This document shows positions 6,811 to 63,382 of a stretch of DNA of 64,000 nucleotides, in pieces (within the stretch, counting starts at the first letter, position 1; each line of letters begins with the position of its first letter). Location: assembly GCA_965220095.1 (NCBI GenBank), contig CBDCPD010000001.1:20700-84699 (forward strand). The letters run 5' to 3'. Under the pieces are notes generated by a model. It was not told where the DNA came from. It saw only the letters and a program-made list of their open reading frames with translations, and did no database searches. Made by a program: the position numbers and the translations under genes. Origin of the DNA: Dehalococcoidia bacterium. Its GTDB lineage: Bacteria; Chloroflexota; Dehalococcoidia; Lucifugimonadales; UBA3495.

Positions 6811-9477
6811 ATGAGAAACAAAGCGAGAAAGCACATCTGGCCGGTTTCGCTGGCGATGTCGCTGGCGTTGGTTGGGGTGCTGGCCGTTGTGGCCCTGGCC
6901 CTGGCTGGCTCCAACACCGCTCAGGCCCATGGCCCATGTGACCTCAGCACCATGACGGTGCCGCAGTTCGTGGAATGCGTGGCCATGGGGGGCGACGCTA
7001 CGCATACCCACGAAACCGACCCCGCCCCCGTCACGACCGCTACCGGAGACATGATTAAATCCGACAGCAACAGCGGCGGCGGCGCTCCCGAATTCCAGGT
7101 GAAGATTGAATCACTGCCCAGGAGGTTGGCGGTGGGCAGCTCCATCGTGCTGTACCTGGAGGACGACTACCAGAAGCCTGCAACGATACCGGCCAGCTCG
7201 GTATACTTCGTGGCGACCCCGCCTACCGAAGAAACCGGCAGCGGCTCCCGGGTGTACACCACCATTGCGCCGAAAATCGACACGGGCGCTTACTTTGATG
7301 CTGACAAAAGTGACATCAGCATCCGGGTTTTCATCCCCGATATGTGCACCTCCTCCACTGATGATTGCCAAGGTCAAAACGGCGTCGATGCCGGTCAAAC
7401 CCTGACGATGGTGGTTGAGGACACTTCCGGCATCAAGAATCCGACGGAAGCCGGGTCGCACAGCGCGGCGTTTGCGATTCTGGACCCCACGGACAGCGTT
7501 CCAGGCCCGGACGCAGTCGACAAGGACTATGAGCTGCTAACCGTAGCAAAGGTCAAGTTGTCGGACGTGAACAACAGTCGTGGCTACGAGTTGGTCGTGA
7601 TTGGCTCCGGCTACAACGACGGCACCACGGCCACCGCGTACACGTTGGCCATGCCCACCGCCGCCCAGTGGTGGGATTCGCTGGACTGCGCAGAGATGAT
7701 AACAGCCGTAGGCATGACCCCCAGTGGCGTCAAAGCAATCGATGACGCCAACGTCTACTGCGAGCTGTACGTCGATTTGGACGAATCCCAGAAGGAGAGG
7801 GTGCGGACATTACGTACCGATCTCTCGGCCGGATTCAAGCTCGGAATGAACGGCTGTGACGTGGTCGTCGCCAACGGCACCGCCATCGGTACCGCCATCG
7901 TCGGCAAAGACGACACTGCGGCCATACCCGTTACGGTAACCGTGCCCATCTTCAAGCCCGGCAAGGTCAACTATATCTGCGTATCCGATGGCGAAAGCCG
8001 CGGCTCCGGGTCCGATGTGGAAATCTTCGAGCTGGAGGATTCCATCCGGGTGATTCCTACTGAGGTAAACGCCGGCGACACCGTAACCCTGTTCGCCCAG
8101 GACTTCCAGGGGAGAGACAGTTTCACCGAGCTGAAGCTGGGTGGTGTGACGGTGTATCCGTCGGAAGACGAAGAATATGAAGACCTCGATCTTCAGCGAG
8201 CCGGCATTGGGAATGACGGCTCAGCTACCATTACCTTCGTGATGCCGCCCACCATCGGTGGCAACCCCATCAAGGGCACTATCCAGGTAAAGGGCACATG
8301 GGGCGGCAAGAAGGGACCCAACGCCGCCACCAAGATAACGGTAAAGCCGGCTGGTCTCACCCTTACCAAGACCGAAGCCAGGGCCAACGAGAGCATTACC
8401 ATCCAGGGCTCCGGCTTCAGCAACACCAGCGTGGTCAAACCCGAGAAGATAACCATCGACGATGTTCCCCTGATGGTCGATGCCGACTCCCTGCGGGATG
8501 ACGTGGTGAAGATATCCAACGGGGGGCAGTTCGTGGCCACGATATACCTCTGGCCCGAAGACAGCACCACCAACCCGGCCCTTGTCACCGGCACGCACAT
8601 CATCCGCGTGGAAGACGAGGACGGCTTCGTTGGCTCCACCAACCTCGCCATCATCGAACCCACGATTACCGTGGTGCCACTGGTGGCCGGCCCCCGGGAC
8701 ATCGTGGTCATCAGTGGTGAAAACTTCCCCGTGGACAACGTGGAAGGCGGCGCCGTTAACGCGGTAACTATTACCGTCAACGACAGCCGCGAGCGGACCT
8801 ACAGCGAGATTCCCGACGGCTCGGGCCGCTTCACGGTTGAGCACCGGGTTTCCTCCAACGTGGCGATCCCGTCCGTGGCTACCATCAAGGCAACCTACGG
8901 CACCGAGATAACCAAGACCGGCAGCTTCGATGTGCCGGAGGCCATTATCACCGTGGAGCCGGCCCAGGCTGCCCCCGGTGACAGCCTCACCCTCTCCGTT
9001 GGTGGTATGCCCGTCTATGCTTCCGTGGACAGCATCACCATCGGTGGCCGCGAAGCCCTGGGGAACCGCAATTTCAACACCGACCGCGAGGGCACGGTAA
9101 CGGCCGAGGGCATCGTGGTGCCAGGTTTGGACCCAGGTATTTTCTCGGTCCAACTGGAGGTCAACGACATCGTGGCCATTGGTCAGGTGGAAGTTGTCTC
9201 CGAAGGCCCGACCGGCCTGGCCAACCCGCTGCCCGCCGCCATGGAGGCGATAGGCGACGAGCTGGTGCGCGTGTTCTACTTCAACGGCGTGGACAAAACC
9301 TGGAGTTTCTTTGACCCCAGGCCAGAGTTCGACGGCCTGAACACGCTGACCGAAATGGTCAGCGGCCAGCCCTACTGGATTCTCGTTTCCGAGGATGTGG
9401 ATGATGTTGTTCTGAACAACAAGACTCGGAACCTGACCTGCGTGGGCGGCGACTGCTGGAACCAGTTGGTTTGGTAA
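6811..9477 (+). CDS. Secreted surface protein with IPT/TIG-like beta-sandwich repeats
   Basis: GGAG at 6798-6801 precedes ATG 6811 (the ORF track starts at TTG 6802). Signal peptide MRNKARKHIWPVSLAMSLALVGVLAVVALALAGSNTAQA. Recurrent motifs ITIQGSGFSN, VVISGENFPVDN and LTLSVGGMPV. Confidence 0.75.
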   Translation: MRNKARKHIWPVSLAMSLALVGVLAVVALALAGSNTAQAHGPCDLSTMTVPQFVECVAMGGDATHTHETDPAPVTTATGDMIKSDSNSGGGAPEFQVKIESLPRRLAVGSSIVLYLEDDYQKPATIPASSVYFVATPPTEETGSGSRVYTTIAPKIDTGAYFDADKSDISIRVFIPDMCTSSTDDCQGQNGVDAGQTLTMVVEDTSGIKNPTEAGSHSAAFAILDPTDSVPGPDAVDKDYELLTVAKVKLSDVNNSRGYELVVIGSGYNDGTTATAYTLAMPTAAQWWDSLDCAEMITAVGMTPSGVKAIDDANVYCELYVDLDESQKERVRTLRTDLSAGFKLGMNGCDVVVANGTAIGTAIVGKDDTAAIPVTVTVPIFKPGKVNYICVSDGESRGSGSDVEIFELEDSIRVIPTEVNAGDTVTLFAQDFQGRDSFTELKLGGVTVYPSEDEEYEDLDLQRAGIGNDGSATITFVMPPTIGGNPIKGTIQVKGTWGGKKGPNAATKITVKPAGLTLTKTEARANESITIQGSGFSNTSVVKPEKITIDDVPLMVDADSLRDDVVKISNGGQFVATIYLWPEDSTTNPALVTGTHIIRVEDEDGFVGSTNLAIIEPTITVVPLVAGPRDIVVISGENFPVDNVEGGAVNAVTITVNDSRERTYSEIPDGSGRFTVEHRVSSNVAIPSVATIKATYGTEITKTGSFDVPEAIITVEPAQAAPGDSLTLSVGGMPVYASVDSITIGGREALGNRNFNTDREGTVTAEGIVVPGLDPGIFSVQLEVNDIVAIGQVEVVSEGPTGLANPLPAAMEAIGDELVRVFYFNGVDKTWSFFDPRPEFDGLNTLTEMVSGQPYWILVSEDVDDVVLNNKTRNLTCVGGDCWNQLVW

Positions 9478-38067: not shown

Positions 38068-39447
38068 TCAAATAGCCAGCTGTAACTGGGTGTTGATAAC
38101 CACTTCCGATCGGCTGCCACCATAGGGGGCAGCCCCACCGTCTACCGCAGGCGATGCCGGCGTCGACAAGGCAGTTCTCCCTTCACCCGGGCCGGTTTCA
38201 CCGCTGGCATTACTGCCATTGGCCAGAGCCTTCCCGTCCAGGAACGTTACATTGGGCCCAACCGGCCCTAGCGCGAGTTTACCCAGCTCGCGAGCTGCGT
38301 TGATTGCCAGTGTTAGCAGATTGAGCGCGGCATTTTCGTTGCGATCGTGTCGCTGGCCGCACTGTGGGCAGGTCCAGTGCAGTTCCCGCCCCAAACTCGC
38401 ATTGTGAGCGCCGCAGTCGGAGCAGAGTTTGCTCGACGGATAGAACCGGTCCGCTTCCACGACGACGGTGCCGTACCAGTCTGCCTTGTAGCGGATCTTC
38501 TGCAGCAGGCCGCCGCTGGCCGCATCACGGATGGCCTTGGCCTGATGGGGCAGTTTGTCCATGCCCGCCACGTTCAGGCTCTCGATGGCCAGTACTACGT
38601 ATTTCCTGACCAGTTGGCGGCTGACCTGGTGGTGCGCGTTGTCCCGTAGCCCGTTGATGCGGCGGTGAATCTCATTGATGCGCCCTTGCGCTTCATGCCA
38701 GCCTCTGGAGCCCACGGTACGCCTAGCCAGGGTACGCTGCCAACGTTGGAGTTTAGCGAGCATCCGGTACAGTGCTTTGGGATTCTCATAATGGACGAGC
38801 TCGCTGTCCACGGCCAACGGCGTTATACCGACATCGACGGCACCGCAGAGGTGAGTTTTCTCCTCGGCGCCGACGGGCGGCTTCCAGTAATTGACGCTGG
38901 CATACCAGCGGCCGTTCTCCTGCTTGATCCGCACCTCGTATGGAATGCCCTCCGGCAGCTCGCGCTTGAGTTTCACCGAGCCCAGGTAGGGCAGCCTGAT
39001 ACGGCGGTGGTCGTCATACTTGACCCGGTCCACGCCGGAGGCGGCCAGGAAAGAGCCCGTGCCGATACGGTTCTTCTTCTTGAAGGTCGGCCTTTCAGCA
39101 TTTAGCGTCGGATTGCGCCAGTTCTCATAGGCCCGCCTGAAGTCACGGCAGGCTCCCTGCGCCACGAACTTGCTGACCTCGGTGGCATACTCCATCCCAA
39201 ACTCGGGCTCATGCTTCAGTTCGTTGAAGATCTTCTCCAGCTCCATGGGACTGGGCCAGAGCCCGTGGACCTGCGCACGGGCCGACCGGTGGGTGGCTAC
39301 CATCAGATTGAAAACGGAACGGGCAATGCCCACCGCACGGGCGGCGTACTGTCCCTGACGTACCGTCAGGTGGACCGGCAGCTTGATCCCATCCTTGCGC
39401 CAGCCCTCGGGGCAGCTGCTGCGTTGGCTGTTGCGCTTCCTGACCAT
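38068..39447 (-). CDS. tnpB: TnpB, canonical (RuvC + zinc ribbon)
   Basis: RuvC D in GAVDVGITPLAV and E in VLAIESLNVAGM. Zinc ribbon SSKLCSDCGAHN...WTCPQCGQRHDRNENAALNL. ATG 39447 (the ORF-track start 39531 is inside tnpA). Confidence 0.85.
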   Translation of the reverse strand: MVRKRNSQRSSCPEGWRKDGIKLPVHLTVRQGQYAARAVGIARSVFNLMVATHRSARAQVHGLWPSPMELEKIFNELKHEPEFGMEYATEVSKFVAQGACRDFRRAYENWRNPTLNAERPTFKKKNRIGTGSFLAASGVDRVKYDDHRRIRLPYLGSVKLKRELPEGIPYEVRIKQENGRWYASVNYWKPPVGAEEKTHLCGAVDVGITPLAVDSELVHYENPKALYRMLAKLQRWQRTLARRTVGSRGWHEAQGRINEIHRRINGLRDNAHHQVSRQLVRKYVVLAIESLNVAGMDKLPHQAKAIRDAASGGLLQKIRYKADWYGTVVVEADRFYPSSKLCSDCGAHNASLGRELHWTCPQCGQRHDRNENAALNLLTLAINAARELGKLALGPVGPNVTFLDGKALANGSNASGETGPGEGRTALSTPASPAVDGGAAPYGGSRSEVVINTQLQLAI

Positions 39448-39452
39448 GCCGT

Positions 39453-40049
39453 TTATTCCGTAGCGGAGCTGATCGCCTGTCGGGCACGATTGGCAGCACT
39501 GCGCCGACCATAGAGCCGGGCGCAGAAGCACGTCAGTATCTCGGTCATGTCCCGCACCAGGTCATCATCGACCTCGTTATAGACCTCGTTGTCTTCAATC
39601 ACCAGCAGACCTCCACTCCGTGCTTCCAGCATGGCTTGTACCATGCCCACACCGAACCTCGCCAGCCGGTCACGGTGCTCCACCAGGATGTAACCCACCT
39701 TGGGATCGGCCAGCAACCGACGCAACTTCGGTCGGCGATCATTGAGTCCACTGGCAACCTCGGATACCACTCGGTCCAACTTGATCCCATTCTGCCCGGC
39801 ATGGGCCCACAGCCGGTTAGCCTGCGGCTCCAGCTGAGGTTTCTGCTCGTGGCTGGACACCCGGGCGTAGCCGACCGTGAGCAGCGCCGGCGCTTCGTCA
39901 GGCAGTATCACATACCAAATGCGACCGATCCTCTCGACCTGCAGGTGTGCTGGAAGTCTGCCCTCGTTGAGCATCCGCCAGGTGGATTGCGGGTCCAGAC
40001 CATACTGGCGGCCCCAGTCGGTGAGTCTGATACGTTTGCCTATGACCAT
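39453..40049 (-). CDS. tnpA: IS607-family serine recombinase TnpA
   Basis: VGYARVSSHEQKPQLEPQ catalytic motif. Similar to 52665-53255. Confidence 0.85.
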   Translation of the reverse strand: MVIGKRIRLTDWGRQYGLDPQSTWRMLNEGRLPAHLQVERIGRIWYVILPDEAPALLTVGYARVSSHEQKPQLEPQANRLWAHAGQNGIKLDRVVSEVASGLNDRRPKLRRLLADPKVGYILVEHRDRLARFGVGMVQAMLEARSGGLLVIEDNEVYNEVDDDLVRDMTEILTCFCARLYGRRSAANRARQAISSATE

Positions 40050-47369: not shown

Positions 47370-48299
47370 TCAAGTCTCCCTCGCTGAAAATGGCTGAGCG
47401 GCGGCGAGGTCATGACCACTGAACTGGCGGATCCGTTCCCACAGCGCATCCCGATCGACTTCGAGGTCCCGCCACAAGGCCGGTACGTCGTCGATGGGGT
47501 CGATAACCACCACCTCGCACCCGCAGCCGGAGTACTGGTCGATGCGGTCCAGATCGCTCCGGAAGGCATGGCTCCAGCCGGCGTCGTGCCGAGCGATAGC
47601 GGTGGCCATCTCCGCCACCGAGTCCCGGGGGTAGATCACGCCCAGGATGGACAGGAGCGCCGCTCCCAAGTTCCAGAGCAACTCATGGGCTTCCCGCCCC
47701 TGGTCGGTGTGGAGGCTGAAGGATTGGTGGCCATCCGGTTGATCTCCCTGGGCGTACCAACGGGCGTTACCCCGCATGAACACAATGTTCTGAAGGACGT
47801 GGACCGCACGGTTGAGGCGCTCCAGGGTCACCAGTTCCCACTCATTGGAGACGTTGCCGTCGTGGCGAAAACGGTCCGCGGCGTTGGGCTCCCTGGTGAA
47901 GATGCGGCCCTCCCGAGCGGCTCGGGCCATGACGTCGTTCATGGTGCGGCGGTAGGAGGCGTAATAATCCAATGACACCACCTGCTGGCCGCCCCTCACC
48001 CCGCGATGGGAGCTCTCATGATCCCAACAGCCCGGATAGTGGCGCTCCCTGATCCGGTGCAGAACTCGGCGGATAGCGGTTTCCGCTTCGCGGCCGGCGG
48101 GGGAGGGGTGGACGATGATCACGTCAAGATCGGACCGCTCGTCCCAGCCGCCGGTAGCCCGGGAGCCGAAGAGGACGACGGCCTCAACGTCGGCCTGGAC
48201 CGCCAGGTCTTGGCAGAGATTGATTGCGGCTGGGTCGGGATCCGGGTGGATCACGGACGGCATCTCCTTGCCGATGCGGTGTCGTCTCACCGGCGGCAT
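47370..48299 (-). CDS. Nucleotidyltransferase (MNT/Pol-beta superfamily) domain protein with C-terminal helical domain
   Basis: VVLFGSRATGGWDERSDLDVIIVHP (GS...DxD NTase motif). ATG 48299 aligns with GTG 55902 of the paralog. Confidence 0.75.
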   Translation of the reverse strand: MPPVRRHRIGKEMPSVIHPDPDPAAINLCQDLAVQADVEAVVLFGSRATGGWDERSDLDVIIVHPSPAGREAETAIRRVLHRIRERHYPGCWDHESSHRGVRGGQQVVSLDYYASYRRTMNDVMARAAREGRIFTREPNAADRFRHDGNVSNEWELVTLERLNRAVHVLQNIVFMRGNARWYAQGDQPDGHQSFSLHTDQGREAHELLWNLGAALLSILGVIYPRDSVAEMATAIARHDAGWSHAFRSDLDRIDQYSGCGCEVVVIDPIDDVPALWRDLEVDRDALWERIRQFSGHDLAAAQPFSARET

Positions 48300-49084
48300 G
48301 GGATGGTCTCCATCCGGCCGGCGCGCCGGCGGCAATGGACTTGGTAGTTGTCGACGATGGTGGTCACGGGCGAGTCTCCGGGGGGCGGTATTGAGTGGTG
48401 ATTTCGGCGGGCGAAAGATGCTCGATAACGATCCGATTGCAATCCTCTGAAACGGAGGTGAACCCTGGCCAACTGCTTCATCTGCCAGACCGAGCTGGCG
48501 CCGCCCATGCGTGCGCCCCACGCCGTCTACGTCAGAAAGTTGTTTCTGCTGGGCGGTCAGACCTACTGTCCCGCGTCTTCGACCTCCTGAACATTAGCCT
48601 CAAGGTCTGGTGCCGGATCATCGCGGGAGATGACGCACTCTCAAACCCTGCACCGGACGCTACCGCACCGACTATTTCCTACGCAAATACAACATTGGGC
48701 CCATTGGAATAGCGTCGTGGGTCAGCAACAATAGATACACAACGGCAGCAGGCGGTCGTCAGAGTGTTTGACGAAGGGAGGCGACTCCCCCCGGTATGCC
48801 CAGCAGCGCGCTTCATGGGGCCATTAGCATGATCGGCGGCCCAGCCTCGAAGCGACCGGGATCTGAATTCCCCCCGAGTGCTCCGGCGTGGCGCGCCGGA
48901 AGTTTCACCCAGTACCGATCATCCACCCGGGCTCCGGGCAAGGTCCCGCGAAAGGTTCAGGTTTCTACACCACGGACCGCGCCCGTAAGCCGTAACCCCG
49001 TCGGCACAGGATGGCCAGATCGTCCACTACCCGACCAAACTTATCACCCACAAACCGCAACATTCCAACCCAGGGAGGCACTCA

Positions 49085-52664: not shown

Positions 52665-53255
52665 ATGGATGTTGTTAGTCGCCGCATCAGTCTAACCGCT
52701 TGGGGTCGTCTTTACGGTTTCGACAAGGCCACGACCGCGCGTATGCACCATGCTGGCCGGTTGCCTCCCGAGTTGCAGGTCGAGCAGTTGCCCAACGGGC
52801 GCTACTATGTGGTGGTGCCATCCGAGAATGACGGGCGTTGCGTGGTGTACGCACGGGTTTCTTCTGCGGACCAAAAGGAAGATCTGGACCGGCAGGTGGG
52901 TCGGGTTGTGGAATGGGCGACGCAGCAGGGTTATCGGCCAGACGAGGTGGTCAAGGAAATCGGCTCCGGTCTGAATGGGAGCCGTCGCCGGTTGCGGCGT
53001 CTGGTAGCGGACCATACGGTGGGTATGATAGTGGTGGAGCATCGGGAGCGCTTGAGCCGTTTCGGGTTTGAGTACGTGGAGGCTGCGCTGGCTGGTCGGG
53101 GAGCACGCATCCTGGTGATGGATGAGGGCGAACTTGAGGACGATTTGGTGCGAGACGTAACCGAGGTAATGACCTCGCTGTGCGCTCGGCTTTACGGACG
53201 GCGTTCGGCCCGTCGGCGGGCGGAACGGGCACTGGCGGCGGCGCAGGAAGGTTGA
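52665..53255 (+). CDS. tnpA: IS607-family serine recombinase TnpA
   Basis: CVVYARVSSADQKEDLDRQ catalytic motif. AT-rich left end TTTAGTATAGTCTAGTTAATT lies before the ATG. The stop TGA overlaps the next ATG (TGATG). Confidence 0.85.
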   Translation: MDVVSRRISLTAWGRLYGFDKATTARMHHAGRLPPELQVEQLPNGRYYVVVPSENDGRCVVYARVSSADQKEDLDRQVGRVVEWATQQGYRPDEVVKEIGSGLNGSRRRLRRLVADHTVGMIVVEHRERLSRFGFEYVEAALAGRGARILVMDEGELEDDLVRDVTEVMTSLCARLYGRRSARRRAERALAAAQEG

Positions 53256-53705
53256 TGCAGCAGCCTGGCACCTACCAGACGCGTATTTTCGATTACGCGG
53301 ACATGGACTGCTTGGAGGGGGACGCCGCCTTGGCGGCCTACGCTGAGCTGTATGGTCGGGTGCAGCGGAAGCTGTTCGCCGACGTTGTGGCGGGCCGCTC
53401 AGCGGCATCGCTGAAGAGCGACTACATCAAGAAGCACGGGATACCGGCGCGGATGTTCAATGCGGTGCGGGTGTCGCTGGAGGGCAAGGTGGCGGCGGTG
53501 CGGGAGTCTCAGCGGTTGCAGCAGGACAGTCTGCAGCGGCGGATTGCTCGGGCCCAGCGGCAGGTTTCCGATGCCGCTGAGCGGGGCCGGTGGGATCAGG
53601 TTCATCAGAAGAAGCGGCGGCTGGCCAATCGTCGACACAGGCTGGCTGGACTGGAAGCCGACATCGCGGAGGGCGTGGTGCGGCTGTGCTTCGGATCCAA
53701 ACGGT
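53255..53705 (+). pseudogene. TnpB-related gene, 3'-truncated (first ~150 codons only)
   Basis: MQQPGTYQTRIFDYADMD...RVQRKLFADVVAGRSAASLKSDYIKKHGIPARMFNAVRVSLEGK...VRLCFGSKR is collinear with 19653-21278 up to CFGSKR. Unrelated sequence follows. Confidence 0.75.
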
Positions 53706-53935
53706 CGATATTATCCCCCGCCTGGATGCTCCTGCATGAAGGAGGAAACATCTCGAGTGCGGACGATTACGCGACGTGGGATGACACGGCGGCGCGCCAG
53801 AAGGCGCTGGATTGGGTGGGGGACTCCGCCGGGAATGAATTCCCCAGGATGAACGAGGTCATCGTGAAGTGCCCTCAGGAATACAAAGCCCAGCAGAACA
53901 GCGCATCCGCCGTCCAGTTGCAGAAACCTCCCCAC

Positions 53936-54901
53936 CTAAAGGTAGCGCAGGGCCGAACCGGCGGATTCGCCGCGGGTGTAGCGGCCGACCATGCCGCCGC
54001 CCTGCTTCCAGCGGCCCTGGCGCTCGATCTCGTGGGTGGGGGCGCCGTTCTGGGCCATGCGTCTTGCCATGCCGACCCTCCCGCTGTGGCCGCTGAAGAA
54101 CTCCCAATTCTCCAGCCCCGCGGCCCTGGCGATGGCCTTCACCCGCCGGGCGATCTGGGACTCCGACAGCCCGAACACCTTCACCTCACCGCCAACGCCC
54201 GCCGGCCGGATGGCGGAAAGCGCCGCCATGGCGGTGGGGGTGATGGCCACCACCGCGCCCTGGGCCTCCGCATCGGTCTTGGAGCGGACCACGGTGATGC
54301 GGCCTGAGCCGTCGTCCCAGCGCTGCACGTCGCCCCAGGTCAGAGACGAAGCCTCGGACCGGCGCAACCCTCCATCTGACAGGACAGCCACCAAGGCCAG
54401 GTCGAGCTTGGCTCGCTCGGAGGCTTGCTCGGGCGTCTCGATGCCGCGGCCGCGCTTGCGGGGCTGGACGGCGGTGAGCCGGATCACGGCGAGCACGTCG
54501 GCGGTGAGGGCGCCGGACTGGCGCTGAGGCTTCGAGAGCCGCCGACCCCATCCCTTTAAAGAGGCGCGCACGCCCGGGTCCCGACAGGGCGTTTCCAGCT
54601 TTGCCCACTCATGCGCTTTCGAGATGGCCGACGTGGCCAGCCGGATGGTGGCGATGCTGGCGCCGGAGTTCGCCCGGGCGGCCAGGTAACGGGCCACGGT
54701 GAGGGGCTCGGCGGGCAGGGACGTGAGGCCCACCTCGTCGCACCAGCCGGCGAAGATGCGCCACTGGGTCCCGTAGACGCGCCTGGTGTTGTCGGAGAGG
54801 ACCGACTCCAGGGATGAGGCCACGCCCTGGTCGGCGGCCCGCAGCGCCGGGATTGACGGGGGTTGATGGGGAACGAGCTCTTGGCCAACGGTGGTGGTCA
54901 T
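53936..54901 (-). CDS. Tyrosine recombinase/integrase (phage-integrase family)
   Basis: N-terminal SAM-like domain (RRVYGTQWRIFAGWCDEVGL...ARYLAARA). Catalytic-domain residues in LSDGGLRRSEASSL, FSGHSGRVGMARRM and GRWKQGGGMVGRYTR. ATG 54901. Confidence 0.85.
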   Translation of the reverse strand: MTTTVGQELVPHQPPSIPALRAADQGVASSLESVLSDNTRRVYGTQWRIFAGWCDEVGLTSLPAEPLTVARYLAARANSGASIATIRLATSAISKAHEWAKLETPCRDPGVRASLKGWGRRLSKPQRQSGALTADVLAVIRLTAVQPRKRGRGIETPEQASERAKLDLALVAVLSDGGLRRSEASSLTWGDVQRWDDGSGRITVVRSKTDAEAQGAVVAITPTAMAALSAIRPAGVGGEVKVFGLSESQIARRVKAIARAAGLENWEFFSGHSGRVGMARRMAQNGAPTHEIERQGRWKQGGGMVGRYTRGESAGSALRYL

Positions 54902-54969
54902 GACTTTCTCCGGCGGCGGTCTGGCGGCTTGGAATAGCGCACGGTCATTTCGGCATGGGCGGCGGGCGA

Positions 54970-55902
54970 TCAAGTTTGCGAATCTGAGGACGACTGCGCT
55001 TGAGCGAGGTCGTAACCGCTGAGTGCGCGGATCCGTTCCCACAGGGCGATACGGTCACTTTCGAGATCTTTCCACATGGCTGCCACATCGTCGATGGGAT
55101 CGGTTACCACCACCTCGCACCCACAGCCGGAGTACTGGTCGATGCGTTCCAGGTCGCTCCGGAACTCGAGAGACCAGCCGGCGTCGTGCCGGATGATGGC
55201 GGCGGCTATCTCCGCCACCGAGTCCCGGGGATAGATGACGCCCAGGATGGACAGGAGCGCCGCTCCCGAGTTCCACAGCAACTCGTGGGCGTTTCGCCCC
55301 TGGTCGGTGTGGACATTGAGACGGTGTCGGCGAGCGGGCGGGTCGCCTTCGGCGTACCAGGGGAAATTGTCCCGCAGCAGTTCGATGTTGCCGTGGACCC
55401 GGGCCGCGCGCTTGAGGCGCTCCAGGGTCGCCAGTTCCCACTCGTTGGACGCGTCGCCGTCGTGGCGGAAGCGGTCCGCGTCCCTGGGATCTCCGGTGAA
55501 GATGCGGCCTTCCCTGGTAGCGCGGGCGATGACGTGGTTCAGGGTGCGGCGCCCGGCGAGGTACTCCACCGGTGTCTTGACCATCTGTCCATCCACCACT
55601 CCATGATGGAGGCTGTCGTACTCGCCGTGGCCCGGGTAGTGTCGCTCCCTGAGCTCGGCCAGCACCCGTCCGAGGACCTTCCTGCGGTCATCCTCGTCGC
55701 CGGCAGCGGGATGGACGATGATCAGGTCGAGATCGGACTGCTGATCCCAGCCGCCGGTGGCCCGGGAGCCGAAGAGGACGACGGCCTGGGCGTCAGTCTG
55801 GACCGCCAGGTCCCGGCCGAGATTGATTGCGGCCGGATCGGGACCCGGGTGGATCACGGACGGCAGCTGGTCGCCGATGCGGTGTCGTCTCACCGGCGGC
55901 AC
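54970..55902 (-). CDS. Nucleotidyltransferase domain protein (paralog of 47370-48299)
   Basis: VVLFGSRATGGWDQQSDLDLIIVHP. Collinear with the paralog throughout. Start at GTG 55902 (or ATG 55938). Confidence 0.75.
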   Translation of the reverse strand: MPPVRRHRIGDQLPSVIHPGPDPAAINLGRDLAVQTDAQAVVLFGSRATGGWDQQSDLDLIIVHPAAGDEDDRRKVLGRVLAELRERHYPGHGEYDSLHHGVVDGQMVKTPVEYLAGRRTLNHVIARATREGRIFTGDPRDADRFRHDGDASNEWELATLERLKRAARVHGNIELLRDNFPWYAEGDPPARRHRLNVHTDQGRNAHELLWNSGAALLSILGVIYPRDSVAEIAAAIIRHDAGWSLEFRSDLERIDQYSGCGCEVVVTDPIDDVAAMWKDLESDRIALWERIRALSGYDLAQAQSSSDSQT

Positions 55903-56033
55903 GGGATGGTCTCCGGCCGGCCGGCGCGCCGGCGGCAATGGACTTGGCGGTGGTCAACGACGTAGGTCATGGGCAAGTCTCCGGCGGCGGGATTTCAGCG
56001 GCGATTTCGGCGGGCAAAAGATGCGCGATAATC

Positions 56034-57133: not shown

Positions 57134-57704
57134 AGAAACGCTCTCTGGTGGCAAATTGTCCAGCACGATAGTGGCAACGTCGGGTCGATTGGAACATGCA
57201 CCAATCGCATGGGAGCAACGGAAGTAGCATCCTACGCGCAATACTGGTCCGTCCGGACCGGCGAGCCAAGCGTGCGCTTCGCCACCCATCCGGTTCATGT
57301 ACACTGGACGGAACCGCGTTCGGCGGCAAACAACCATGACCACGCCCATCCCCATCCTGATTGACCCTATCCTCGACGTTCTACGAAGAAGGGTGAGGGA
57401 ATGGAATCCAGGCGAAACGTGATGATTGACCGAAGTTGCTTCGCACCCACACCTACGGAAATCGTGCAGACGCAAGCGTGGTTGCGGAGCGCACATGCAA
57501 ACGCCTATCGGCCCATTGGCCTACCACACTGAAAAGGTCATACAGAGCCTGACAAGCGACTACAGGCAAATGGAAGAAGATTACAACCGAATGTTTCGAT
57601 AACCAATCGGCGGTAAAGTTGGACGAACTCGGTCAACCGCGAGGTTCTGTGCCGGATTGAAAATGAAGAAGCATAGACGGTGGTCCAAAAAGGAGCTGCT
57701 GGCC

Positions 57705-57938
57705 ATGAACAAACCGCTGTACCTTAGAACGACGGTATTGCCCGGCGGAAGAATAGAAATCGTGGACCAGGAACTGTCCGAAGGGGAGACGGTCGATGTC
57801 GTCGTGACTGCCTCAGCGCCAACGCCGCGCCGCTCCATCATGGAGATACTCAACAGCGGTCCAGAGCGCCGCCTGTTCCAGACGGCCGATGAGGTGCGGG
57901 CGTACTTGGCGGAAGAGAAGGCGTCGTGGGACGGCTAG
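57705..57938 (+). CDS. Putative antitoxin (AF2212/DUF104- or AbrB-like beta domain)
   Basis: AGGAG at 57691 precedes ATG 57705. MNKPLYLRTTVLPGGRIEIVDQELSEGETVDVVVT. Overlaps the downstream PIN gene. Confidence 0.6.
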   Translation: MNKPLYLRTTVLPGGRIEIVDQELSEGETVDVVVTASAPTPRRSIMEILNSGPERRLFQTADEVRAYLAEEKASWDG

Positions 57939-58363
57939 ATCTTCCGCACGCTGGCTTGGTCTATCTCGATGCCAGTGGCCTCATATACAGCGTGGAGCGC
58001 GTGGAGCCGTACCGCACACTGCTTGAACCAATGTGGCAGCAAGCCCAGGATGGAAACCTCACCATCGTGAGCAGCCCCGTCCTGGTGGTGGAGGCGCTGG
58101 TGAAACCGCTCCGGGATGGCAACACCGAGATTGAATGGCAATACCGTGAACTATTTGCGTCCAATGCGGTGAGACTACTCGATGCCTCTTACCAGGTGTT
58201 TGAAGACGCGGCCCGCCTGCGCGCCGAGACTGGCCTGAAGACACCCGACGCTCTCCACGCTGCAACATCTCTTCGGGCGGGTTGCACGCTCTTCATCACC
58301 AACGACACCGACTTTCGCCGCGTCCAAGGGCTACCTGTCGTCGTCCTGGATGATCTGCTCTAG
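57926..58363 (+). CDS. vapC: PIN-domain toxin (VapC-like), third TA module
   Basis: LVYLDASGLIY...IVSSPVLVVEAL...TPDALHAATSL...LFITNDTDFRRV. Confidence 0.8.
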   Translation: MGRLDLPHAGLVYLDASGLIYSVERVEPYRTLLEPMWQQAQDGNLTIVSSPVLVVEALVKPLRDGNTEIEWQYRELFASNAVRLLDASYQVFEDAARLRAETGLKTPDALHAATSLRAGCTLFITNDTDFRRVQGLPVVVLDDLL

Positions 58364-58528: not shown

Positions 58529-61135
58529 TCAGCAGCATTCCAGGGCCCGGTCATCGTAGCCCAGTTCGCGAGCGCGTTGGAAATCCTCCTCCGAGCCATC
58601 GTCATCGCCCAGTAACTGGCGAACCAAACCGCGGCCATAAGTGGAACGGCCGCTGGTGGGATCAAATTCAACTGCTGTGTCGAAATCTGCCAGCGCCAGG
58701 TCCAGTTTCCCACTGAATAGGTGAGCATTGCCGCGGGTAAAACAAGCTATTGGGTCTCGGGGATTGAGTTTCAATGTCCCGTTGCAATCTGCGATCGCCA
58801 GGTCATATTCCCCCTTGGCGACATAGGCGTCCGCACGAAACCGATAGGCAAACGGATCTTGAGGCTTGAGCCGGAGCGCAGCGTCGTAATCGGCGATGGC
58901 CCGGTCCGGGTCGCCCTGCATTCGATAGGCCATTCCCCGTCCCAGATAAGCCGCCGCATTCTCAGAGTCTAGCCGCAGTGCGGCTTCAAAGTCCGCGATC
59001 GCTGGGTCGTACTCCCCTTTGTCACGAAGGCAATCGCCTCGGCCGCGGTAGGCATCAGCATGGTTGGGGTCGAGGCGGACAGATTCACACATGTCAGCGA
59101 GCGCCTGGTCCAATGCGCCCTGCTCGACGTAGGCCAGTCCCCGGTAGTAATATGCGGCCGCGGCGTCAGGTCTGAGCCGGATGTGTTCGCTCATGTCAGC
59201 AACCGTTCGGCCCCACTGATCCTGGTAGCCGTATAGGATTCCGCGCAGCATGTACGCGGGAGCGTGGTCCGGGTCCAGCCGTAGAACGGCATCCAGATCG
59301 GCGATAGCCAGGTCGTCTTCTCCCTTGGCGAAATGTGCTCTCGCCCTGGTCAGGTAAGCATAGTGATCATCGGGGCTGAGCCTGATGACGGCGTCCATGA
59401 CGGTGATCTTCCGGTCGTGCTCGGAAGCGCCTCCGTCATTGTCCGGTTCTTCCTGGCGGAATTCCCGGAGAAACTCCATGATCTTGTCCGTGTCGTCTTC
59501 GGCCCCAAAATGGTGGGCCATCCTTGAGTACTTCCTGTGCTTTTCGTGATCACCAGCCCAGAGCGCAATTTCCGAAGCCGCTACCAAAGCGGACGTCTCC
59601 TCGGGGTCGAGCTCTATTGCCGCTTCGAACGCTGCCAGAGCATCGGACAGCTGGCCCAGCTTCCAGTACGCAGCCCCCAATGCGCTGTAGTAACCGGAAT
59701 CAGGCGGTCCGCATTCCGGTTTCACATCCCGCAGGTGATCCAACGCTTCCGCCGGTCTGTCGGTGTGGAGTAATGTCCGACCGATTGCGGTCCAGGGGAG
59801 AATCCAGGCAGGGTGCATCGCAACCGCCACCCATAACGCGTCCAATCCCTCGTTGACGAGGGCCTTCTCCCTGCGCCAAATACCGATGTCAGTTTTCAGC
59901 GACCCCAGCGCAAAGTGGTAAGCCGGAACTAATGGGTCAAGCCGGGCCGCCGTCTCCAACTCGGCCATGGCTTCGTCAAGTTGTCCCTGTACCTCGCGCT
60001 CTAGAGAGCGCCGGTAATGGGCATAGGCCTCGGGGTTGCCCACCCCCCAATCCTCAAGTAAGTGCCCATCGGTCTCCTGTAAGAGGATGTCCTCCCCAGC
60101 TAGATGAGCGCGGAGATTGACCGAGAGGACGCGCCGGACCCAGTCCACCCCGGTGGACCGCAGGTCCTCCCGCCATTCTTCGTCCGGTTCCCGTTCAATC
60201 AGGGCTGCCAACAGCGGTTTGGCAATGCGGGCGTCAACGCCCAGATCAGCCAACACGGTGAGATCAGCTGCACGGTCTTCGGTAGGGAACTGGTCGTCAA
60301 TTATCCGATAGGTTTCCTCAGCGTACCGGTGTAATCGACTGATGGCGTCGTCCACGGCCTCGTCCCCTATGTGCTCGACCAACAGGCCAACGACGTCGCT
60401 GACCCAGTAGAGGGCTCGCAGTTCAAGCGCGATGCCAGCCGTGTTCGAACCTGTAATGTTGTCGGCCAGCACCTGGGCTAGCTTCGCGATGTTGTCATCG
60501 GAGGGCCGGGCGCCATGGTACATCCAGGCGTCGAAGGTGTTATCGTTCACCCTGATTTCATCGACCACGTCCTTCCGGGATAGCCCAGCTTGGCGCCGCT
60601 TTTGATTGAGGTAGGCTTGTCGGGCCGTGCGGCTCGCCCAACCAAGCAAGTCGAGCGTTGCCGGAGATGATCCGGCAAGATGCAGATGGGCGGCTACCCT
60701 GAGTGCCAGATCGATGACGGCGAGCCTGACGTATACCCCCCAGACCTTCGGCAGATGGCTGGGCAGGACGCTCATGGTCCTCCGCCGGAGGAACGACCGG
60801 AACAGGTCCCAGTTGTCCGCGTGCCACTGCAGCATGGAGGCCAACGCGGGCGCCAATTCGTAATTGGCTTCCCTCTCCTCGGGCGACGCAACGAAACCGG
60901 AGCCGGTCAACACCTCCGCTATGGCCTCGATGATCTCGGCCCTGCTGGAATCCTTCACCCGATCTCGCAACCGGCCGGAGAAATACCGTTGGGCTGTTTT
61001 TCTCCGCAGAGCAGGGTGCTTTATGCCCAACTTTGCGACCAGAGCTCCGATTATCTGGCCGCTGGTGGGTAGGCGGGGTGTAACTTCGCGTTCAGTCACA
61101 TTGTCCTCGCGCTCGTCACCAATCATACAGGCCAT
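58529..61135 (-). CDS. 868-aa HTH (XRE-like) + tetratricopeptide-repeat protein
   Basis: HTH QKRRQAGLSRKDVVDEIRVNDNTFDAWMYHGARPSDDNIAKLAQVL. The C-terminal half carries >=10 34-residue TPRs (e.g. AYRGRGDCLRDKGEYDPAIADFEAALRLDSENAAAYLGRGMAY). No Walker A motif. ATG 61135 (alternative 61126) lies inside the 3' end of the viperin gene. Confidence 0.85.
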   Translation of the reverse strand: MACMIGDEREDNVTEREVTPRLPTSGQIIGALVAKLGIKHPALRRKTAQRYFSGRLRDRVKDSSRAEIIEAIAEVLTGSGFVASPEEREANYELAPALASMLQWHADNWDLFRSFLRRRTMSVLPSHLPKVWGVYVRLAVIDLALRVAAHLHLAGSSPATLDLLGWASRTARQAYLNQKRRQAGLSRKDVVDEIRVNDNTFDAWMYHGARPSDDNIAKLAQVLADNITGSNTAGIALELRALYWVSDVVGLLVEHIGDEAVDDAISRLHRYAEETYRIIDDQFPTEDRAADLTVLADLGVDARIAKPLLAALIEREPDEEWREDLRSTGVDWVRRVLSVNLRAHLAGEDILLQETDGHLLEDWGVGNPEAYAHYRRSLEREVQGQLDEAMAELETAARLDPLVPAYHFALGSLKTDIGIWRREKALVNEGLDALWVAVAMHPAWILPWTAIGRTLLHTDRPAEALDHLRDVKPECGPPDSGYYSALGAAYWKLGQLSDALAAFEAAIELDPEETSALVAASEIALWAGDHEKHRKYSRMAHHFGAEDDTDKIMEFLREFRQEEPDNDGGASEHDRKITVMDAVIRLSPDDHYAYLTRARAHFAKGEDDLAIADLDAVLRLDPDHAPAYMLRGILYGYQDQWGRTVADMSEHIRLRPDAAAAYYYRGLAYVEQGALDQALADMCESVRLDPNHADAYRGRGDCLRDKGEYDPAIADFEAALRLDSENAAAYLGRGMAYRMQGDPDRAIADYDAALRLKPQDPFAYRFRADAYVAKGEYDLAIADCNGTLKLNPRDPIACFTRGNAHLFSGKLDLALADFDTAVEFDPTSGRSTYGRGLVRQLLGDDDGSEEDFQRARELGYDDRALECC

Positions 61136-62033
61136 CCCGCAACCGGAATTTGCCAGGGTCGACCGATACTTCTTTTAGCGCGACGTTGACACCGACCTCG
61201 TTTATAGGACGGCTGTACACGTGGGCTCCGGCCGTATTGTCAAAGAAGCGGCCCGCGGGGTCGACCATCACGTAGCTGCCGGTCATCAGGTCATTGCTCT
61301 CCGGAACGACCGCGACGCCCATGGCCTCCACGCCCCGGTTGCGGGCAACGTAGCCGGCGAACTGCTCGGGAGTGATCACCTGGTCATCGACCAGACCGTC
61401 GTTCTGGCCTCTGATGGGAAGCACCTGCAGCTGCTTCCACCGTTCCGGTCGCGCTCTGGCGATGAAGCCGGTCAGGTCCTCGCCGCAGTTGCAACGCGTC
61501 ACCACGGTGTTGACTTTCAGGCGGATACCCCGCTCCTTCAGCAGATCAATGACGCCCAGGTAGTCATCCTCGGTGAGAGGCCCGTTTCGGGTCGTTCGCC
61601 CCAACGCTTCCAATTTCTGCGGATCTACCGTATCTATGCTCAAGGTGGCCCAATCCAAGTGACCGTGGACTTGGTCAAGCCACTCCCGCGTGATCCGGCT
61701 GCCGTTGGTGACCATGGACGTGGTGAACGTCAGTTCCTTGGCCCGCCGTATCAGGTCCGGGAGCCAGGGGCAAAGCGTGGGTTCGCCGCCGGCGAAGTTG
61801 ATTTTATCGAACCCCGCGCTGGCCAGCGCCTCCACCACGGAAAGGCAGCCCTCACGCGGCAGGTGTCCTTTGGGCAGGACGTCCTGTCCGATATCTTGAA
61901 AGGTGGCGAAGCAGAACCGGCACCTCATGTTGCAGGGCTTCCACAGGTGGAAGTTGACCGAGGGTATTTCTTTCGTGATTTCCATTTCGACTCCACGATG
62001 TTCCGTAGCTTCACGGAAGCGTTTTATGGCCAT
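61116..62033 (-). CDS. Prokaryotic viperin-like radical SAM enzyme (pVip)
   Basis: VNFHLWKPCNMRCRFCF (CxxxCxxC), KINFAGGEPTL, MVTNGSRI, LSIDT, RWKQLQVLPIRGQN, VPESNDLMTGSYVMVD and C-terminal FRLRDGLYDW. These are collinear with the viperin/RSAD2 motifs as I remember them. An alternative start is ATG 61985. Confidence 0.85.
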   Translation of the reverse strand: MAIKRFREATEHRGVEMEITKEIPSVNFHLWKPCNMRCRFCFATFQDIGQDVLPKGHLPREGCLSVVEALASAGFDKINFAGGEPTLCPWLPDLIRRAKELTFTTSMVTNGSRITREWLDQVHGHLDWATLSIDTVDPQKLEALGRTTRNGPLTEDDYLGVIDLLKERGIRLKVNTVVTRCNCGEDLTGFIARARPERWKQLQVLPIRGQNDGLVDDQVITPEQFAGYVARNRGVEAMGVAVVPESNDLMTGSYVMVDPAGRFFDNTAGAHVYSRPINEVGVNVALKEVSVDPGKFRLRDGLYDW

Positions 62034-62401
62034 CGTAGGGTTGCTCTTCTGAGCGGTCAGCCCCAGTCAGGCGGACAAATCGCATTCCGTGGAAAGGTTG
62101 TTGCAACGCCTTTGCATCAGCGGAGCTGCCGCCCGTTCTCCCCGACCGCCTGCTCAATGGCGCGACGATATGCGCCTTCGTCGGTGAAACGGCCGCCTCT
62201 ACCCGGCCTCAGTCCCGACAACACATGGGTCAGGCCATCGACACCCACCACGGTGCGCTCCATCCGGGCCGCCCCATTGGATCGCGAAATCCTCCCTCTG
62301 CGGCACGGTACTGCTCCTTTGAACCTCTGACGTCGTCCGGTGCGCCGGCGGCGTTGCGCCGGACCGGACTGCGGAAAAGACTTGGTCGTTACGTCTTCAT
62401 G

Positions 62402-62788
62402 TCACTCCCGAAGTTGACGGCGTCGCCGCCGATTGGCGACGACAATCACCCCGTCGGTCACGCTGTAGCCCACGCCGGTATCGACGTAATCCGATTCCTC
62501 ATCCCCTTCTGACAAGCTAGTCCGGTAGGTTCGCCCGGCCACGCGCTCCGTGGCTTCTGCGGACACTTCCGCAGCGCGTCCAGCGGTGAGCGGGAAAATC
62601 GAGATGACCTCGTAGCCCTCCCTATCCAGTTGGTTGCAGTATCTGGCGATGTCATCCGCCAGCTTGCGGCCCGCCGGGCGTTCTCCGGCGATGCCGTACA
62701 CCTGCTTCGTGGAGCCGTTGCGCTCGTTGAGATGGCTGTCAACCGCTATGTAGCGAGCAACGAATGCCTCTGCGTCTTTGGTAGTCAT
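62402..62788 (-). CDS. Hypothetical protein upstream of the viperin gene
   Basis: AAGGAGGA precedes ATG 62788 (MTTKDAEAFVARYIAVDSHLNERNG...). No family recognised. Confidence 0.5.
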   Translation of the reverse strand: MTTKDAEAFVARYIAVDSHLNERNGSTKQVYGIAGERPAGRKLADDIARYCNQLDREGYEVISIFPLTAGRAAEVSAEATERVAGRTYRTSLSEGDEESDYVDTGVGYSVTDGVIVVANRRRRRQLRE

Positions 62789-63382
62789 GGAACAACCGTC
62801 CTCCTTGCATAATCGTGCCGCAGGAGCGGGAGCAGTGAGCACGGCAATCGAGTTTCCACACTAACGCCGCGAGTGTGGAACGAATGCCGCCCTGCGTTCG
62901 CGATGACCAAAGCCAGCGCGGCCCGCCGATTGGTACGTCGCCATGCTTGCGGTCACAATTTGGTTGCGACAATCAGCGCCCCACTGAACTCGGTCAGTAC
63001 CGGGCAATTGGCGCTCTGTAACCACGATGGCGGCCGGGATTGTAACGTGATGGAGACGAGCCCGCAAGCCATTATCCGGACGATCAGGATCAATCAAGAA
63101 TCCCGGACCGGCTGCACTTATCGGAATCGCCGGCGGCGCATACGAAGTGTCCTCCCGATACCTGAATGACGTGCCGCAGGAAAATTGCGTGGCTGCCCCG
63201 GGACTACGACATCAGCGATGGAAAACCCGGCAACGCCCGGGATCTGGACGACTATCCATCCAGTCACGGAGCACTACCGGTCGAGACGTATAAACTCCTC
63301 TGCGGAATAGATAATGACTTTGGAGCTCCGGTCGATCGAAGGATCTCTCCAATCAGACGACACCCCAATAGTGAGTGCGACC

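Follow-up and report, generated by a model that had tools for sequence, protein, structure and literature searches.

A prokaryotic viperin gene paired with an HTH-TPR protein gene and a conserved promoter motif in Dehalococcoidia, with a candidate role for the partner as operon regulator

What does a large protein with a helix-turn-helix (HTH) and tetratricopeptide repeats (TPRs) do directly downstream of a bacterial viperin gene? Prokaryotic viperins (pVips) are reportedly stand-alone genes, as described by Bernheim and colleagues in 2021. The question arises from 64,000 nucleotides of a Dehalococcoidia bacterium (assembly GCA_965220095.1, contig CBDCPD010000001.1, positions 20,700 to 84,699 of the forward strand), here called the window. 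An earlier note on this DNA listed two open reading frames (ORFs) on the minus strand, 61116-62033 and 58529-61135, and both are present there. The first encodes a pVip and the second its HTH-TPR partner. On balance, sequence comparisons make it somewhat probable that the partner is a transcription factor that controls its own operon through a conserved promoter motif. Features of the cassette described below lie on the minus strand.

ORF 61116-62033 is a pVip, a viperin-family radical S-adenosylmethionine (SAM) enzyme. The NCBIfam equivalog model NF038283 (viperin_w_prok) scored 296.7 bits against a curated cutoff of 180, and the best non-viperin NCBIfam model, MoaA, scored 73 bits with its own cutoff at 284. 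Three PADLOC pVip models scored 266-359 bits (E 1e-107 to 7e-80), and Pfam Radical_SAM PF04055 matched with an E of 1.3e-20. The CxxxCxxC cluster motif is present as CNMRCRFC and the SAM-binding GGEP motif as FAGGEPT. Residues 8-290 are collinear with the solved viperins 9dfu, 7n7h, 5vsl, and 6q2p (E 1e-34 to 1e-37), and CxxxCxxC, GGEP, TNGS, RWK.FQVL, ESN..M..SY, and a terminal Y.W are common to all. The viperin-type C-terminal extension is intact, and the protein ends in ...GLYDW. Model scores and end-to-end alignment with solved viperins bear out the earlier assignment of this ORF to the viperins. By family membership, its products would be 3′-deoxy-3′,4′-didehydronucleoside triphosphate chain terminators (ddh-nucleotides). 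The top PADLOC model for pVip 61116-61985 was the viperin half of viperin-kinase fusions (359 bits), and the model for viperins without kinase association scored lower (289 bits). No kinase was found in the cassette or adjoining it, despite the fusion model scoring best.

The partner is an HTH and TPR protein in which Pfam, NCBIfam, and PADLOC searches found no P-loop, NTPase, or enzyme domain, as the earlier note had read it by eye. Its first 355-360 or so residues, counted from the probable start at GTG 61099, form an N-terminal domain (N-domain, 60035-61099) for which no Pfam model exists. Across the first ~360 residues, no Pfam or NCBIfam model matched apart from a sub-threshold HTH_31 hit (E 0.039). 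The AF2 model of the N-domain is compact and all-alpha (pLDDT 87, pTM 0.85), and Foldseek found no global structural match to it in the PDB (best E 0.3, TM ~0.12) or BFVD. The family comprises 142 clusters at 90% identity in a 5.8-billion-protein database, nearly all from Chloroflexota/Dehalococcoidia metagenome assemblies, and 788 representatives at 50% identity (E<=1e-3). Its alignment contains an invariant LPTSGQI near the N-terminus and an XRE-like segment, YLNQKR..AG.S...LA..V.V.DNTVDAWMY.GARP.

The XRE/Cro-C1-type HTH lies within this domain at residues 157-214 (60458-60631, GTG numbering). Local Foldseek matches to residues ~157-214 were lambda-repressor/Cro-C1 HTHs (probability 0.98-0.99, root-mean-square deviation 1.4-2.5 Å). 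The family profile matched P22 C2-type repressors and DBP48 in the PDB at the HTH segment (E 0.004-0.06), phrog_2967 (transcriptional regulator) matched the partner HTH (E 0.005), and precomputed annotations place PF01381 in many N-domain homologues. Together these comparisons support an XRE/Cro-C1 HTH that is real at the family level and internal rather than N-terminal, flanked on both sides by ~150-aa helical segments. The XRE-like HTH of the earlier note is thus kept for the family, but its position is internal (157-214) and its score in the window protein is sub-threshold. Comparison by hhalign shows homology between the N-domain subfamily linked to pVip and the distant one (probability 100%, E 1e-70), and the recognition-helix segment NTVD.W...RP is kept between subfamilies of just 27% identity. 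This conservation parallels the near-invariance of the promoter motif described below.

The remainder of the partner consists of TPRs. Residues ~380-860 of ORF 58529-61135 matched TPR_1 (E 4e-51) and TPR_2 (E 3e-50). The full-length AF2 model (pLDDT 87.7) contains the N-domain, proximal TPRs, a low-confidence linker, and distal TPRs, with paired helices from 365 to 854. The proximal module has ~5 repeats (59453-60034) and occurs in short and long family members alike. The distal, near-consensus array has ~8.5 repeats (58565-59428), follows the linker, and occurs in long-form members only. Family lengths are bimodal, with short forms of ~530-570 aa that lack the distal array and long forms of ~845-880 aa. 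Full-length Foldseek matches in the PDB were generic TPR superhelices (designed CTPRs, OGT, SPY, APC/C subunits, Tom71), with E about 4e-13 for consensus TPR and OGT. The distal array is 33-34% identical to designed CTPR proteins. Between species, identity ranges from 46 to 77% in the distal TPRs and from 44 to 78% in the N-domain, with the distal array slightly more conserved. A hypervariable TPR sensor was considered and rejected, as divergence is equally fast in all three segments of the partner. The lack of hypervariability in the TPR modules favours a conserved ligand or partner and speaks against recognition of phage proteins, which evolve fast.

The pair is conserved in other genomes. 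One genome per Genome Taxonomy Database (GTDB) species was searched with the N-domain profile, and pVip was sought by tblastn around the 25 loci found (designated here by L numbers, like those from the other searches). All but one of these loci are from Chloroflexota/Dehalococcoidia/SAR202 (24), and the other is from Myxococcota. A pVip gene lies directly 5′ of the partner on the same strand in 20/25, including every locus with N-domain identity of at least 44% except L022, an N-terminally truncated second partner copy in a genome that also holds a complete pair. Metagenome look-ups found the pair in L001 and L003-L005 as well, and L032-L034 keep it at a partner identity of 30-32% and a pVip identity of 62-63%. 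Starting from pVip, the partner was immediately 3′ in 3/3 look-ups, split in one. Identities of pVip and partner to the window are correlated over 20 loci (r=0.90), with the partner diverging faster (means of 72% and 55%, respectively). The earlier note had named a lack of co-occurrence elsewhere as evidence against a module; co-occurrence was found from both anchors. L002 is an exception, with a partner 67% identical and no pVip present. No N-domain relative was found among the plasmids searched, and no HTH-TPR relative in 2.9 million viral contigs. Disrupted copies (frameshift, split, truncation) affect pVip in L013 and the partner in L023, L025, L026, and L040, and may reflect cassette decay or assembly errors.

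Alignment of the DNA 5′ of pVip revealed a conserved non-coding block with the core TTGTCC-N5-AYTKGGG in almost every locus. The window carries it as the operator-like 18-nt motif TTGTCCGCCTGACTGGGG at 62061-62078 (family consensus TTGTCC-R-N3-R-ACTKGGG). The motif abuts the -35 element of a predicted sigma-70-type core promoter at 62032-62060 (-35 CTGACC 62060-62055, 17-nt spacer, -10 TACGAT 62037-62032), which places it at roughly -53 to -36 of the transcription start predicted near 62025. The exact pattern was found in 23 loci, one copy per locus, on the gene strand and at the same position, and variants were found besides. Allowing up to one mismatch, 62061-62078 is the sole match in the 64-kb window, and 1.09 Mb contained 34 on-target and 3 off-target matches; a match counts as on-target if it shares its strand with a pVip or HTH-TPR gene and lies no more than 450 nt 5′ of that gene. 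Thirty unique promoter sequences anchored on the motif share the fixed arrangement motif-[cTGACn]-N17-[TAnnAT], in which the sequence of the 17-nt spacer varies. With 8/12 consensus matches, the core promoter falls short of a stringent sigma-70 scan. Viral contigs gave three motif matches, at chance level and unrelated. Palindrome and direct-repeat readings of the motif were tried and no convincing symmetry was found; a sigma-54 or extracytoplasmic function (ECF) sigma factor promoter was rejected by eye on spacing.

A short 5′ leader (61986-62031) follows the promoter and contains a Shine-Dalgarno (SD) sequence, GGAG, at 61994-61991 and a hairpin, TTCCGT-N6-ACGGAA, at about 62018-62001. The leader region is conserved in the 12 closest loci, and the hairpin is partly conserved and gone in distant loci. 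No Rfam match was found for the leader or upstream region. A structured leader or riboswitch with outer pairing CCTACGATG/CATCGTGGG was considered and dropped, because the fixed geometry of motif, -35, and -10 accounts better for the conservation and because distant loci do not keep its inner hairpin. A further complementarity, seen in the closest loci only, lies between CCTACGATG of the -10 region and CATCGTGG at the pVip SD.

The pVip gene, a predicted radical-SAM nucleotide dehydratase of 289 aa, probably starts at ATG 61985 (61116-61985), which is Met17 of the longest ORF, rather than at ATG 62033. This start is preferred because in-frame stops separate the upstream ATG from Met17 in orthologues L001 and L023, gene callers assign 289 aa to >100 close homologues, GGAG lies 5 nt 5′ of ATG 61985, and ATG 62033 falls within the predicted -10 hexamer. 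The Met at window residue 17 is common to orthologous pVip loci. For this ORF the earlier note was right about coordinates and strand, and its start at ATG 62033 gives way to the likelier ATG 61985.

The partner probably starts at GTG 61099, which yields 856 aa and leaves a 16-nt intergenic spacer (61100-61115) after the pVip stop, with an SD of its own (GAGGA, 61108-61104). Close orthologues have a GAGGA/GAGGG SD followed by an ATG 16-19 nt past the pVip stop, and GTG 61099 is the window equivalent. SD and start are kept in L001, L006, L008, L011, L012, L014, and L023, and many database homologues start exactly at this position. The 20-nt overlap with pVip belongs to the longest partner ORF only. 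Stoichiometric translational coupling through that overlap, as proposed earlier, is unlikely because the probable start leaves a 16-nt gap with its own SD. An ATG giving an 11-nt overlap was considered as a sign of coupling and dropped, since it sits inside the pVip Tyr-Asp codons, which explains its conservation. A subgroup with a K/R-rich N-terminal extension (L018, L021, L025) appears to start at the overlapping ATG, and the junction in L032/L033 is an 11-nt overlap. The two genes most likely still form an operon, joined by a spacer with its own SD.

The whole cassette, comprising motif and promoter, pVip, and HTH-TPR gene, spans ~3.55 kb (58529-62084). In loci with unrelated flanks (L011, L012, L006, L008, L001), DNA similarity to the window starts ~6 nt 5′ of the motif, so the motif marks the left edge of the cassette. 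Similarity ends at or near the partner stop codon in the four long-form loci (L011, L012, L006, L008) and earlier, at that partner's own 3′ end, in L001, which has a short-form partner.

The motif also lies 5′ of HTH-TPR homologues without pVip, in L002, L027, L029 (Myxococcota), L030, and L031. Neighbourhoods of the distant subfamily come from few loci, as a word-index search with the distant N-domain alignment yielded 9 proteins. In L028 (5651-8941), where the pVip and HTH-TPR genes point towards each other, a separate copy of the motif precedes each of them (5651 on the plus strand, 8941 on the minus strand). The pVip matches there span more than one frame, and the gene may be a pseudogene. 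The motif therefore travels with the HTH-TPR family independently of pVip, which points to transcriptional control and not to direct regulation of the enzyme.

In the pVip-less cassettes, a small ORF lies between promoter and HTH-TPR gene. In L027 (5723-5875), L030 (5733-5870), L031 (1157-1321), L035 (5817-5954), and L036 (415-552), the place of pVip is taken by a small acidic family of 45-54 aa, whose motif is NHA(D/N)Q.NPNNDAYW.SRG..ERPDDWEE. It is absent from pVip cassettes, and searches of Pfam, NCBIfam, and PHROG gave no matching model. Plasmids of Pseudomonas, Vibrio, Thioclava, and Cereibacter carry relatives (57-71% identity) as stand-alone hypothetical genes, and the Vibrio plasmid relative adjoins a TIR-domain gene. 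L035/L036 are the only prophage-like context seen for HTH-TPR relatives. L029 and L002 have other small ORFs in the pVip slot. In the L002 region 7669-8001, a 43-aa Gly/Arg-rich ORF (MAAPQMRGGRGGSKGGGRGRPANAPSTTGKPSGGGRGNNPPRK) lies between a one-mismatch motif and the partner gene. L029 (2722-8905; Myxococcota metagenome-assembled genome (MAG) JBCCWC010000050.1) combines the motif and a small ORF with a distant HTH-TPR relative, a 738-aa ORF at 26% identity. That ORF is flanked by a DUF499 protein and by a patatin-like phospholipase ORF overlapping its 3′ end, and the locus may represent another effector context.

In the proposed mechanism, the HTH-TPR protein would be a signal-responsive transcription factor of its own pVip operon. 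Its HTH would bind the 18-bp motif (TTGTCC-N5-ACTGGGG in the window) beside the -35 element, and the TPR superhelix would serve as the input domain that receives the signal. The sigma-70-type promoter with its upstream motif would drive pVip and then the HTH-TPR gene, so that pVip output would be conditional and autoregulated. The first gene of the regulated operon would be pVip or, in other lineages, a small protein. This assignment is preferred because of the linkage of the genes, the motif, the way the motif follows the regulator, the Cro/C1 HTH, the cassette boundaries, and the lack of a detected enzymatic domain. Binding of the motif by the partner, the direction of regulation, the nature of the signal, and an antiviral role are what we infer from these patterns. 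Activators in contact with RNA polymerase typically occupy positions of roughly -53 to -36. Of the two directions, repression is the less likely because the site abuts the -35 element at that position and the core promoter is only a moderate sigma-70 match.

Several observations weigh against the transcription factor assignment. The window partner's own HTH falls below the Pfam threshold (HTH_31 E 0.039). The motif is neither an obvious palindrome nor a clean direct repeat, contrary to expectation for a dimeric XRE protein, and it could instead act as a site of repression or be bound by a different host factor. L025 lacks the full motif and L035/L036 have only a degenerate one. The core promoter is a fair sigma-70 match and need not depend on an activator. 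At ~500 residues the TPR array is bigger than a simple transcription factor would lead one to expect, and it may have protein contacts as well, for example with pVip. Only 3 loci were sampled from the pVip side, and a survey anchored on the partner favours recovery of the pair.

The likeliest alternative, although we consider it improbable, is that the partner would act at the protein level as a sensor or scaffold. A phage protein, a host protein, or pVip would be bound by its TPR superhelix and the enzyme switched post-translationally, with the HTH secondary or used for autoregulation only. The tight, conserved operon organisation fits such a role, as do TPR arrays resembling protein-binding superhelices (OGT, APC/C, Tom71) and a partner much larger than DNA binding requires. 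TPR domains often bind terminal peptides, and the viperin C-terminal Y-D-W tail is kept in pVip. Yet pVip is not an obligatory ligand, because the same family and the same promoter motif exist without it, and TPR modules no more variable than the N-domain misfit an arms race with phage proteins. A protein-level role is compatible with the partner being a transcription factor.

Rather less probable still is a physiological, not antiviral, module, in which the ddh-nucleotide synthase has a metabolic or stress role and the HTH-TPR protein answers a cellular cue. The pair occurs in many Dehalococcoidia/SAR202 species, at times among housekeeping genes (tig, rsgA, gmk, priA in L003-L005), and the TPRs are conserved and not diversifying. 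Viperin-type enzymes may have cellular functions beyond antiviral defence (PMC9642334). Set against these points are the discrete cassette boundaries and flanks that differ between genomes. The cassette often adjoins toxin-antitoxin genes, transposases, an integrase, Mrr, and an OLD-family ATPase (neighbours in other loci are OLD-family ATPase, Mrr, MazE/PIN, ParE, Fic, and transposases), and it is pseudogenised in L013, L023, L025, L026, and L040, behaviour typical of accessory defence genes. pVips of several clades reportedly protect E. coli from phage, again according to Bernheim and colleagues in 2021.

It is quite unlikely that the motif is a plain promoter part or the site of an unrelated host factor, with the HTH-TPR protein acting elsewhere and merely co-transcribed: the motif is asymmetric and merges with the -35 element (ACTGGGG-CTGAC), but in Chloroflexota and in a Myxococcota MAG it accompanies the HTH-TPR gene, whichever gene comes first in the operon, and it occurs once per roughly 13-kb locus, where a general promoter feature would recur at neighbours.

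The genomic context pattern is that of a mobile accessory cassette. In the window, a PIN/antitoxin pair lies at 57657-58363. A mobile-element cluster spans 52665-55938 and includes an IS607-type serine resolvase (52665-53255), followed by a 375-aa ORF without a Pfam match that is possibly a degraded TnpB, a tyrosine integrase (53936-55042), and a nucleotidyltransferase (54970-55938) that overlaps the integrase and has a weak MntA-like match. A second nucleotidyltransferase is encoded at 47370-48521 and a TnpB/Cas12f-like gene at 38068-39531. On the 5′ side of the cassette, a 146-aa ORF at 62402-62842 on the minus strand matched phrog_15841 (unknown function, E 4.7e-10) and had no match in Pfam, NCBIfam, or PADLOC. 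The DNA 5′ of the cassette, this ORF included, is similar in the closest locus L014 only, and L023 shares a different upstream stretch, farther from the cassette.

Stand-alone pVips, treated by PADLOC and DefenseFinder as a single-gene system, belong to the same enzyme family. They differ in that the window pVip is first in a conserved two-gene cassette with an HTH-TPR protein and a promoter motif. The partner is not modelled in PADLOC-DB v2, whose matches to it were weak and at the TPR level only (E 3e-4 or worse). Nucleotide kinases (CMPK2-like) adjoin 12% of bacterial viperins (bioRxiv 10.1101/2023.09.13.557418), and HicA/RelE RNases are reported as pVip neighbours (bioRxiv 10.1101/2023.12.08.570793). 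These arrangements are alike in that pVip is linked to a second gene presumed to modulate defence. Their second genes encode enzymes or toxins that provide substrate or contribute an effector, whereas the window partner has no catalytic domain and looks regulatory; kinase, HicA, and RelE were not found in the cassette. The earlier statement that pVips stand alone or beside nucleotide kinases has to be widened for HicA and RelE, and its companion claim of an unreported pairing agrees with the searchable literature, in which no description of pVip with an HTH-TPR protein was found.

Kinship of the partner with RNPP regulators (PlcR, NprR, Rap, PrgX, Rgg/ComR) or AimR, suggested earlier from domain architecture, is not borne out. 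The likeness lies in an HTH and TPR-type repeats on one polypeptide, in a candidate DNA box beside the -35 element, and in the small ORF next to the regulator in pVip-less relatives. The RNPP HTH is N-terminal and directly precedes the TPRs, whereas the partner HTH is internal, in an N-domain without a global structural match (best E 0.3). TPR matches were generic, no RNPP or AimR members were among the top 50 Foldseek PDB matches listed for the N-domain and full-length models, and no RNPP-specific Pfam or NCBIfam match was found in the partner. RNPP systems have an adjacent exported pro-peptide gene, and the window cassette has no small ORF. The small ORFs of pVip-less relatives are acidic and hydrophilic, and no hydrophobic N-terminal stretch was seen on reading the translations (no signal-peptide predictor was run). 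AimR is phage- or prophage-encoded with aimP, whereas no relative of the partner was found in the 2.9 million viral contigs and BFVD gave no global match.

BrxR/CapW are closer in concept. They are reportedly dedicated transcription factors (PMC9122601) that are encoded with a defence system and bind a site at its promoter. BrxR/CapW have a winged HTH-WYL fold, whereas the partner has an XRE-HTH in a new alpha domain plus TPRs; the gene order differs as well, with the partner gene placed 3′ of the effector. A Pfam search of the partner gave no WYL domain. Animal viperin RSAD2, which is interferon-induced, is a homologous enzyme, and if the proposal holds, expression of the window pVip would likewise be conditional on a signal. 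The RSAD2 regulatory machinery is unrelated to the cassette, and any likeness would be functional only.

What is new here is a dedicated regulator proposed for a known effector, a candidate operator, and a new domain family; the effector itself is known. The searchable literature handles pVips as defence systems of one gene, and no description of their regulation was found in it. The cassette suggests that in these Chloroflexota pVip is switched by a dedicated regulator and does not work as a lone gene. More speculatively, and with clearly less assurance than for operon control as such, the HTH-TPR protein may be an activator that senses infection or stress and renders a bacterial viperin inducible, part of a modular regulator-operator chassis that drives pVip in most Chloroflexota and, in other lineages, a small acidic protein of a new family. 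If true, this would be a prokaryotic functional counterpart of interferon-induced viperin, and the cassettes, regulated cargo units with a DNA-binding domain of a family not described before, would form a new class. The small acidic alternative cargo, also present on proteobacterial plasmids, hints at a modular system beyond viperin. The candidate 18-bp operator and a dedicated regulator would make the timing of chain-terminating nucleotide production experimentally approachable. Should the regulator not be antiviral, the cassette would instead suggest that ddh-nucleotides serve the physiology of Chloroflexota that are abundant in marine and subsurface settings.

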